Positions 57,010 through 58,812 of a stretch of DNA of 64,000 nt are shown here, piece by piece. The translations under genes and the position numbers were made by a program. Under the pieces are notes generated by a model. It was not told the DNA's origin and did no database searches. It saw only the letters and a list, made by a program, of their open reading frames with translations. Every line of letters begins with the position of its first letter. The stretch's first letter is position 1. Source of the DNA: a virus. The stretch lies in the IMG/VR virus record IMGVR_UViG_3300013004_000026, positions 1-64,000 of that record; one strand, written 5' to 3'.

Positions 57010-57038
57010 ATTATACGCATTCTCATGGATTATGTCAA
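57010..57038 (-). promoter_or_regulatory. Perfect consensus sigma70 promoter driving def and the LKW array
   Basis: TTGACA-17 nt-TATAAT. Confidence 0.85.
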
Positions 57039-57581: not shown

Positions 57582-57881
57582 ATGGCTATACAAGTAATCA
57601 TTAAGGTTACCAAAACTGACAATAAGGATTGGGTATTTGCTCGCAGCGAGCCTGCTGCAATACTACATAGCATGGAGCAAGCCAAGGCTTGGTTATGCAG
57701 TGACTGGAACATGCCCAGCAATCAAGAAGCTATCTTGGTCAAGACCTTTGCCGACATGATCGAAGCTAACAAGTTTATTATAAAACAGGTTGACACTGAT
57801 TTTCCAGACTACGAAGCTGTACGCGATTTATTTGTGGAATATGAAAACAAAGACGAGCAGATTACTACCAAAGAAATTTAG
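57582..57881 (+). CDS. Hypothetical protein (late, opposite strand)
   Basis: TAAATA 57556-57561 and AAGGAG RBS; converges on the putative ncRNA. Confidence 0.7.
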   Translation: MAIQVIIKVTKTDNKDWVFARSEPAAILHSMEQAKAWLCSDWNMPSNQEAILVKTFADMIEANKFIIKQVDTDFPDYEAVRDLFVEYENKDEQITTKEI

Positions 57882-57882
57882 C

Positions 57883-58170
57883 AAAGCAAGCGGTTAAGTA
57901 GTAGCTGAACAAATGACACCAAGTTGGGCTAATAACCAATGGGACAAAAGTCAACCAACAACCAACAGAGGACCTAATATTTGCCGGATTCAAAGGACAA
58001 GCTCTCTATGACTTGGCCGGCTGACACTAGGACACGGAGGCTTATCAGGCCATTAAGCGTTATAGTATGCATAATCTTCTTTTGGAAGAGATGCAATCTA
58101 CGGTGCTACTCTCATCTCCCTCTTGCTTTCCAAGGACACCAACCAATGCTGATGCCCTATTGCTTTCCCT
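57883..58170 (-). ncRNA. Putative structured ncRNA downstream of the DIP1984-like gene
   Basis: Largest non-coding gap in the window; terminal stem 58105-58129 pairing with 57883-57905, internal hairpins, G-U pairs only on the minus strand, repeated UGUCCUUUG-like motif. Confidence 0.7.
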
Positions 58171-58236
58171 GTCTTGATTTCATTGACCACGGTTTTAGGC
58201 CGGGTATTTTACTTTCTCAACAGGTTCCACAACTCT

Positions 58237-58812
58237 TTACAAAATACCCTCTTTCTTGAGAATATTTTCTACCTCGTCTGTGAGTTCAATCTCAGTGGTT
58301 ACATTGAGATGCAGAACCTCATCATTGAGGCTTTGTTTTTGCTTTTTCAATTCGCGCATGATGCCACGAATGCTTTCAACTTGTGATGTTTGCAAAACGC
58401 CACTGCTCACAGTGTTGTCGTAACCATACATGCGATGTTCTTCGCGACGATTGCGAATCTTTTCCAGCTGACCAGCCACCACCTGCAGATCCTTAAGAGC
58501 CGCAGATTCCTGCACCAATGGATCCAACTGTGCCAGGCGTTTGTCAATGTAGGCCAAGTGACTCAGCTTGTTGCCAATACCGCACTGGAAATTGGCAATA
58601 CCCATGGTTGCACGAATGCTGTACAAGGCCATGAGTAGGTCACTACGGCGCACATCAGCTGCCATTAGTGAATCATTGGCTGCCTGCAACACTGCTGTGG
58701 GTTCTTGAAACTCACTGATGTCCACAGTGGTTTTCACAGCGATGTTTTTCAACAGATCGTTGATGTTGGTTTGAATTGCATTTGCTTTGCGTAGACTGAC
58801 TTTGATTGCCAT
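58237..58812 (-). CDS. Helical coiled-coil protein, DIP1984/DUF6847-like (by recalled motif)
   Basis: SLRKANAIQ start, LYSIR..MG.AN middle, KQKQSLNDEVLHLNVTTEIEL end resembling R.LD..IQ..NW.TEL; AAGGAG RBS. Confidence 0.55.
   Translation of the reverse strand: MAIKVSLRKANAIQTNINDLLKNIAVKTTVDISEFQEPTAVLQAANDSLMAADVRRSDLLMALYSIRATMGIANFQCGIGNKLSHLAYIDKRLAQLDPLVQESAALKDLQVVAGQLEKIRNRREEHRMYGYDNTVSSGVLQTSQVESIRGIMRELKKQKQSLNDEVLHLNVTTEIELTDEVENILKKEGIL

Follow-up and report, generated by a model that had tools for sequence, protein, structure and literature searches.

Structured or otherwise stable RNAs are carried by phages beside their tRNA genes, and for several of them, including ROOL, GOLLD and the T4 stable RNAs C and D, the function is unexplained. 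OB folds of the cold-shock or S1 type bind about 7 nt of RNA each. Short triplets repeated in phase along an RNA also have described readers: the HutP hexamer recognizes NAG triplets (U498, U505 and U512) arranged as two sets, and TRAP too reads repeated triplets (PMC2425495). In this study, we describe a structured non-coding RNA of about 355 nt encoded on the minus strand of a 64,000-nucleotide stretch of viral DNA (hereafter the window), which is the first 64 kb of a 168,427-base IMG/VR virus record (IMGVR_UViG_3300013004_000026) that is ~47% complete. Since close relatives of this record are found on contigs of 330–375 kb, it belongs to a jumbo phage. The RNA adjoins a gene for a 191-aa helical protein, and its conserved regularity is UG, mostly UUG, at an exact 7-nt phase in the unpaired 3′ half of the molecule, with the four bases between successive UUGs varying. 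Exact phase, free spacers, unpaired RNA and deep conservation are together the signature of several identical protein contacts, and we favor, at a probability of about 0.45, a stable RNA on which a single-strand RNA-binding protein, multimeric or multi-domain, may dock at sites spaced by heptads.

The likeness to the HutP and TRAP leaders lies in conserved short triplets, fixed spacing, free spacers and single-stranded RNA, and each of the marks of a triplet-repeat leader (regular triplets, variable spacers, absence of pairing) is found in the RNA described here. HutP sites are 7 nt apart in two sets, which resembles the sets of 2, 4 and 2 units seen in the window. However, the triplet is UUG here and NAG or G/UAG in the ligands of HutP and TRAP, respectively; the array is placed inside a large closed fold instead of a terminator/antiterminator; and the surroundings are those of a phage tRNA array rather than an amino-acid operon. 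Ligands of cold-shock domains are a second point of comparison. The consensus heptamer of CspB is GTCTTTG/T, and cold-shock domains have subsites for 6–7 bases (PMC1904285, PMC7825780). Their 7-nt footprint would suit the spacing of the array, their preferred heptamer is pyrimidine-rich and ends in G, and the most conserved word of the family, GUC(C/A)UUUG, equals the CspB heptamer plus one extra base, an inexact match. The average heptad of the RNA reads UAYAUUG, and cold-shock domains have low sequence specificity. Compared with ROOL and GOLLD, the RNA is smaller (265–355 nt), has UUG heptads and is tied to one protein gene, and no sequence- or structure-model match to either of them was found.

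Neither an Rfam family nor a literature description of the RNA was found. Covarying RNA motifs of viruses, some of them located ≤25 nt upstream of genes, have been predicted and catalogued on a large scale (Fremin et al., 2023; PMC10690425), and the family may be one of the 8495 unnamed IMG/VR candidates in that catalogue. The text of that study, which was compared by description only, mentions neither the 190-aa neighbor nor a heptad array.

A closed fold with UUG in seven-nucleotide phase

A preliminary description of the window had picked out six short words with GUC-like cores. All six sit in one structured RNA (57882–58236, minus strand, 355 nt), which fills the non-coding gap between two convergent genes. 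Relative to shuffled sequences, the fold has a z-score of −2.6 on the minus strand and +0.8 on the plus strand. Many invariant G-U pairs, which would become A-C mismatches if the sequence were flipped, place the RNA on the minus strand of the window, co-directional with the 191-aa gene. Syntenic loci were fetched through homologues of the 191-aa protein with 66–90% identity, and in 7/7 of them a non-coding gap of 351–393 nt is present at the same place. When these gaps are aligned, invariant blocks alternate with hairpins whose sequence has changed but remains complementary. The RNAalifold consensus of this close clade has 70 pairs, of which 35 show double-sided changes, with 94% of cells paired and a covariation score of 0.42; slid controls reach only 35–46% paired, 5–9 double-sided pairs and scores of 0.06–0.12. 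The consensus of a distant clade, built from 47 distinct sequences, has 47 pairs (32 double-sided, 98% of cells paired, score 0.40), compared with 6–12 double-sided pairs and scores of 0.06–0.08 in its slid controls.

The element is one folded molecule, as a long-range helix closes the whole of it. The 5′ strand of this closing helix (58105–58127, minus strand) includes a second copy of GGAAAGCAAGAGGG and the conserved GAUGAGAG, and its partner is the 3′ strand at 57885–57905 (minus strand). The helix has 16 pairs, five of them double-sided in the close clade, and the homologous helices of the distant clade have 11 double-sided pairs out of 16. It is also kept, with unrelated sequence, in the Caulobacter phage CcrColossus. 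In the window, the closing helix may extend by 3–4 nt over the stop codon of the convergent gene.

UG pairs spaced 7 nt apart occur nine times in the window RNA where 2.6 are expected (z 4.4), and there is no excess at other distances between 3 and 14 nt. Among distant members (32 of 127 unique members sampled), the mean UG excess is 4.3 at a distance of 7 and 1.3 at a distance of 14. The heptad units of the window fall into three sets of 2, 4 and 2 (sets A, B and C). Set A coincides with one of the six words (site 4, UUGUCCUUUG, UG-N5-UG; 57991–58000, minus strand) and is the most conserved word of the family: UGUC(C/A)UUUG (57991–57999) is invariant in 8/8 close-clade sequences and UGUYNNUUG recurs in 119/127 unique members. 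It is located within a large loop in the distant clade, and the local pairing drawn for it in the close clade (helix 11) is without covariation. Set B (CUG-N4-UUG-N4-UUG-N4-UUG; 57945–57968, minus strand) contains the UUGGUU repeats, has its UGs at RNA positions 270, 277, 284 and 291, and ends in a unit that is the start of site 2. Its 7-nt unit is detected by Tandem Repeats Finder, and the four-unit array is seen in 110/127 unique members. Set C, together with site 1 (GUGUCAUUUG; 57910–57919, minus strand), continues into UUGU(U/C)CAG, immediately ahead of the closing helix's 3′ strand. Its UGs are kept in 7/8 and 8/8 close-clade sequences, and 118 of the 127 unique members have UG-N5-UGUYCRG.

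The heptad stretches are unpaired in the consensus folds of both the close and the distant clade. The logo of the heptads reads U-A-Y-A-U-U-G; positions 6–7 are set by the way it was constructed, position 5 has U in 79%, and the others are loose. Six consecutive UUGs are found in a further clade with a 193-aa version of the neighboring protein and in the Caulobacter phages (CcrColossus, CcrPW, L006 and L110 tested), a run that 0/2000 shuffles reach in any of the four sequences. Clades whose neighboring proteins share only 27–50% identity all retain the array, as would be expected under selection on phased protein contacts.

The preliminary description had read the six words as one periodic motif and had proposed that they are iterated sites for an oligomeric protein or a mini repeat-spacer array. 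Direct reading of the minus strand bore out the six words, as well as the distances of 28, 28 and 25 nt between the first four GUC cores. The motif does exceed its frequency in shuffled sequence: the 355-nt gap contains [G/U]GUC[C/A] eight times, compared with 1.65 ± 1.14 for 2000 dinucleotide-preserving shuffles, none of which reaches eight, and with 0.9 expected from the minus strand of the whole window, although such P-values are generous because the motif was defined after looking. The reported recurrence of UUGGUU is real as well (4 copies, 0.22 expected), and so is that of the 14-mer GGAAAGCAA[G/U]AGGG, which is present at 58118–58131 and again at 58155–58168. The idea of a single periodic motif, however, did not survive the alignment of homologous loci, in which the spacing of 25–28 nt is not kept. 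Conservation of the individual words is divided. Site 4 and the UGs of site 1 are kept in relatives, site 6 is kept where the RNA follows the gene, and the GUC of sites 3 and 5 is not kept. The core of site 5, GUCCUA (58028–58033, in the word at 58027–58035), is the 5′ strand and the core of site 3, UAGGUC (57971–57976, in the word at 57966–57975), is the 3′ strand of one minus-strand helix, 5/6 pairs of which are double-sided; since both are strands of a covarying helix, their GUC is a by-product of pairing. The GUCC-like words are partly UG-N5-UG units, which is also how the consensus given for them, UGUCCUUUG, reads, and partly helix strands. What carries over from the proposal of iterated protein sites is a possible site at every UUG, one per 7 nt in sets of 2/4/2 on unpaired RNA; a site at every GUCC word, one per 25–28 nt, does not.

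The remainder of the fold is described here from 5′ to 3′. The 5′ domain (58155–58236, minus strand), present in the window clade only, is made of nested helices with invariant AAGUAAAAUA, GUCAAUGAA and UAUAGGG. Helices 1, 2 and 4 of this domain have double-sided changes, and invariant G-U pairs point to the minus strand. A simple hairpin with (U)AGGG replaces it in the other clades in which the RNA follows the gene (193-aa clade and CcrColossus compared). A sigma-70 promoter within the window's 5′ domain is unlikely, given the wrong spacing and a region that forms covarying helices. On the plus strand, the 5′-domain hairpin followed by UAUUUUACUU (58187–58215) is flagged as terminator-like; if this terminator works, the transcript of the convergent gene would run ~310 nt antisense over the whole RNA before it stops. 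The P1 hairpin (AUCAGC/GUUGGU; 58138–58153, minus strand) has 5/6 double-sided pairs in the close clade, and its homologue in the distant clade has 6/8. Site 6, GUGUCCUUG (58131–58139, minus strand), is part of the linker from P1 to the closing helix. It is GUCCUUG or a one-base variant (AUCCUUG, AGCCUUG) in 8/8 close-clade sequences and is kept as GUCCUUG in the seven 193-aa-clade loci read, with AACCGG in its stead where the RNA precedes the gene. An internal hairpin of 14 bp (58062–58101, minus strand) has 8/14 double-sided pairs. We also considered the 14-mer as an alternative pairing partner, i.e., as a switch, and rejected it as a family feature since the pair of copies is confined to the three closest sequences.

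Range and genomic setting of the family

The family includes at least 260 phage loci, from giant freshwater metagenomic phages and from the Caulobacter phages CcrColossus and CcrPW. Searching with an nhmmer model built from the close clade recovered 110–240 nt of the 3′ part of the RNA in >100 further loci with a neighbor protein 45–52% identical, and the model of this distant clade finds the window RNA in return (E 5e-16). In these loci, which make up most of the family, the RNA is upstream of the protein gene (RNA-then-gene order), whereas it is downstream of the gene in the window clade, the 193-aa clade and the Caulobacter phages. Adjacency of the two survives this swap of order. When IMG/VR was searched RNA-first, using an exact 22-mer taken from the RNA 3′ end, 109 loci were returned, and the protein gene adjoins the RNA in 104 of them, downstream in 102; the remaining five are cut at the locus end. 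In the protein-first search, the RNA was adjacent and on the same strand in 157/174 loci (140 upstream, 17 downstream). Nine protein-first loci with enough flank gave no nhmmer hit and belong to the 193-aa clade, and a diverged copy of the RNA is located downstream of the gene in the six of these that were read. Two cultured Caulobacter phages, CcrColossus (gp272) and CcrPW, have tblastn homologues of the protein with 27% identity, and in both the gene is followed by an unannotated gap of 284–292 nt. Within this gap there is a hairpin on the 5′ side, the closing helix is built from entirely unrelated sequence (GGUGGAAGCGG with CCGCUUCCAC), CUCUUUGCUAACCGG stands where set A would be and, as in set C of the window family, UUUGUCCAG precedes the 3′ strand.

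Loci with RNA-then-gene order have a characteristic layout. A near-consensus TTGACA-N16-18-TAnAAT promoter is found at a fixed distance in 70/104 of them, and ~260–280 nt separate the RNA start from a conserved GACCCGU. Near-perfect TTGACA-N17-TATAAT examples are seen at L028:1975–2003 and L002:2680–2707. As such near-perfect promoters drive the RNA, these phages appear to lean on the sigma-70 polymerase of the host. Promoters resembling the distant-clade TTGACA-N17-TATAAT were also noted on the minus strand of the window at 57038 and 56053. In the RNA-then-gene clade, a tRNA on the same strand follows within 1300 nt downstream in 190/215 loci, usually right after the protein gene, and a tRNA precedes the RNA by ≤500 nt in 118/182 loci, typically ending ~51 nt from the RNA start. 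A minority of loci have only 1–6 nt, and no promoter, between the end of the tRNA and the RNA, so that tRNA 3′ processing would create the RNA 5′ end. A homologue of the RNA polymerase omega subunit, 69–84 aa long, stands between the RNA and the protein gene in ~40% of the RNA-first loci (PF01192, E 1e-15 at L028:2290–2499 and 6e-11 at L005:2745–2999). The window itself has zero tRNA genes and zero Rfam matches at gathering level, and neither tRNAs nor an omega gene were found in the 168 kb of the record, a half-genome. In one distant subgroup, the 190-aa gene and a tRNA-Met are separated by a further non-coding stretch of ~350 nt that contains a 19-bp inverted repeat (L002:3574–3925); this stretch is not alignable with the window RNA and may be another unannotated RNA.

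Searches with known models and sequences did not place the RNA in a described family. Loci of all four clades gave no Rfam family match even at E up to 10, and with Rfam 15, which includes ROOL, GOLLD, 6S, tmRNA, RNase P and riboswitches, the same limit returned only chance-level snoRNA/sRNA rows and the flanking tRNAs. Readings of the RNA as a tmRNA, RNase P, 6S RNA or group I intron have no model support. Outside the window, on the complementary strand of the record, ARAGORN lists a candidate permuted tmRNA with a 32-residue tag (G000:C1:75710–76196). A blastn search of the region against 50,697 phage records gave no match. A loose gapped DNA pattern was also run against IMG/VR, but none of the 118 matches listed fits the RNA model at E ≤ 1e-3, and they were taken for chance.

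The neighboring protein and surrounding genes

The constant neighbor of the RNA, on the same strand, is the 191-aa gene (58237–58812, minus strand). Its product has at least 270 homologues, nearly all viral, and is essentially absent from 185,579 prokaryote species (one genome each). It belongs to no Pfam, NCBIfam or PHROG family. The AlphaFold2 model is all-helical (pLDDT 86), and the top match in both fold searches is the uncharacterised DIP1984-like structure 3kdq (Foldseek E 0.03; VIA Z 10.6 over 142 residues, rmsd 5.1), though fold Z values under ~13 are not decisive for helical bundles. No match to 3kdq or DIP1984-like proteins was seen at the sequence level. An extra gene of 189–191 aa was noted just upstream of the 191-aa gene in some close relatives (L087:1907–2482, L089:1902–2477 and L092:1847–2416). 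These tandem genes are not duplicates, being unrelated in sequence, and the L087 copy is basic (pI 9.5).

On the other side of the gap, a convergent 99-aa gene (57582–57881, plus strand) begins with an AGGAG ribosome-binding site and ATG, and its stop codon abuts the RNA 3′ end. A gene of 99–114 aa on the opposite strand is called at the same place in the syntenic loci. The neighbors of the gap in the window are a metallophosphoesterase, the 191-aa helical protein and small unknown ORFs, and no toxin family, nuclease or Cas-like gene was found among them.

Possible roles of the phased array

If the RNA does present docking sites, it would be transcribed within a longer RNA and probably cut back to a stable form, its ends set by the closing helix in the way seen for tRNAs and the other stable RNAs of such arrays. 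The RNA would then hold out the phased UUG row, and one subunit or domain would sit on each UUG with a 7-nt footprint. The partner could be the co-encoded 190-aa protein, in which case the two would be a phage ribonucleoprotein, or alternatively an abundant host factor that is recruited or soaked up by the phage. A more elaborate proposal, which we put forward tentatively and regard as doubtful, is that the RNA forms a new phage ribonucleoprotein, either with the 190-aa protein or with an RNA-binding protein captured from the host, of OB-fold or oligomeric type. In it, a scaffold with 4–8 UUGs in 7-nt phase would line up protein copies and redirect or titrate a host RNA-handling factor near the tRNA/omega module.

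Several points weigh against protein docking. The model was drawn from the pattern of the sequence alone. The available half-genome (168 kb, ~47% complete) has no homologue of HutP or TRAP (PF09021 and PF02081) or of Hfq. Only 2/4 related complete genomes have genes with a cold-shock domain, neither of them next to the RNA. These are PF00313 matches at G002:24710–24901 (L403, E 8e-31) and G003:157888–158064 (L404, E 5e-18), far from the RNA. The 190-aa protein has no RNA-binding domain that family and fold searches could recognize and is near neutral (pI 5.7–6.3), and both observations weaken it as the direct partner. Adjacency of RNA and gene is itself weak evidence for a partnership, since neighborhoods are conserved generally among related phages. 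Finally, the heptads could make tertiary or intermolecular RNA-RNA contacts instead, to which the single-column covariation scan is blind because it is confounded by two subgroups.

Contacts of this kind are central to a different explanation, in which the element is an ornate, self-contained RNA, either a ribozyme or a self-assembling RNA like ROOL and GOLLD, and the UUGs touch RNA only. We consider this unlikely. A large, multi-branched and strongly covarying fold, a core kept over very deep divergence and a neighbor protein without RNA-binding features would all suit it, and the phage and tRNA-side setting may recall ROOL and GOLLD. However, no ROOL, GOLLD or ribozyme model matches at E up to 10, neither a complementary CAA-type array nor a covarying partner for the UUGs turned up in the consensus fold or the covariation scan, and free spacers combined with an exact phase are more typical of protein footprints. 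In this all-against-all scan the signal of the two subgroups dominates, and the best non-nested pairs are in parallel register. A kissing pair between the P1 loop (GCAAUA) and a heptad (UAUUGC) fits some sequences, without covariation, and was set aside. The arrangement of most loci lends itself to yet another reading, a cis-acting elongation element (a boxA/nut-like or put-like leader) that would act against termination through the tRNA array, with set A (UGUCCUUUGAA) as its boxA-like site. Like the boxA of rrn and lambda leaders, the RNA of the RNA-then-gene clade stands just behind a strong promoter, near-consensus in most loci, and ahead of untranslated RNA genes, with the gene or genes and then same-strand tRNAs after it; it would also fit that in ~40% of the RNA-first loci the gene directly after the RNA encodes the omega homologue (PF01192, E 1e-15). 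The set A word UUGUCCUUUGAAU agrees with the B. subtilis rrn boxA AUGAUCUUUGAAA at 9/13 positions (PMC13753749), although this consensus may not be that of the host. The agreement drops to 8/11 with the gamma-proteobacterial consensus GYTCTTTAANA (PMC5725501) and to 7/12 with the E. coli boxA UGCUCUUUAACA (PMC5725501, PMC13753749), and neither of these consensuses may be the host's. The promoter-proximal position fails in the window clade, the 193-aa clade and CcrColossus, where the RNA comes after the gene and, in the window, faces a convergent gene. The word lies mid-fold and the RNA is not at the head of the operon in the window clade, unlike in rrn and lambda. A closed fold of 265–355 nt far exceeds what a boxA needs, and the heptad array would be left unexplained, which together make an elongation element rather improbable.

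The constant gene partner also raises autoregulation, in which the 190-aa protein would bind its own transcript and control translation or stability, with no trans role for the RNA. RNA and gene are always on one transcript strand, and the RNA ends 15–70 nt before the start codon in ~60/104 RNA-first loci that carry the gene. Yet the order is reversed in three clades, the omega gene is inserted in many other loci, the Shine-Dalgarno sequence is outside the fold, and size and conservation go beyond those of known autoregulatory operators, so we judge this improbable to a high degree. Least credible by far is the repeat-spacer array of the preliminary description, or a type III antitoxin-like array, cut at the GUCC words into ~27-nt RNAs. 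Its appeal was that GUC words are enriched and the first four are spaced by 28, 28 and 25 nt, but neither this spacing nor two of the six words are conserved. No units of that size exist: direct repeats do not exceed 14 nt and the only tandem unit is the 7-mer. Two of the words pair with each other, the spacers hold covarying helices and the closing helix spans the whole, and there is no nuclease or Cas-like neighbor. The description was right that the repeats are not CRISPR. Searching for three or more near-identical repeats of 23–50 nt returned only matches of 8–14 nt in two or three copies and the 7-nt unit, and the 30–40-nt tandem repeats and endoribonuclease toxin of a ToxI-like system were not found either.

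With hundreds of members, strong covariation and a strong promoter, the RNA is a well-supported new family. Giant phages have many unexplained non-coding regions, and this family accounts for one of them: a probably stable RNA linked to tRNA arrays and to a phage-encoded RNA polymerase omega subunit. UUG in an exact 7-nt phase is an unusual and sharply defined feature that points to a testable mode of protein recognition, and it would extend the short list of RNAs that are recognized through short repeats in phase, such as those of TRAP and HutP. Because a diverged member follows gp272 in the cultured phages CcrColossus and CcrPW, its function can be tested directly in a model bacterium.

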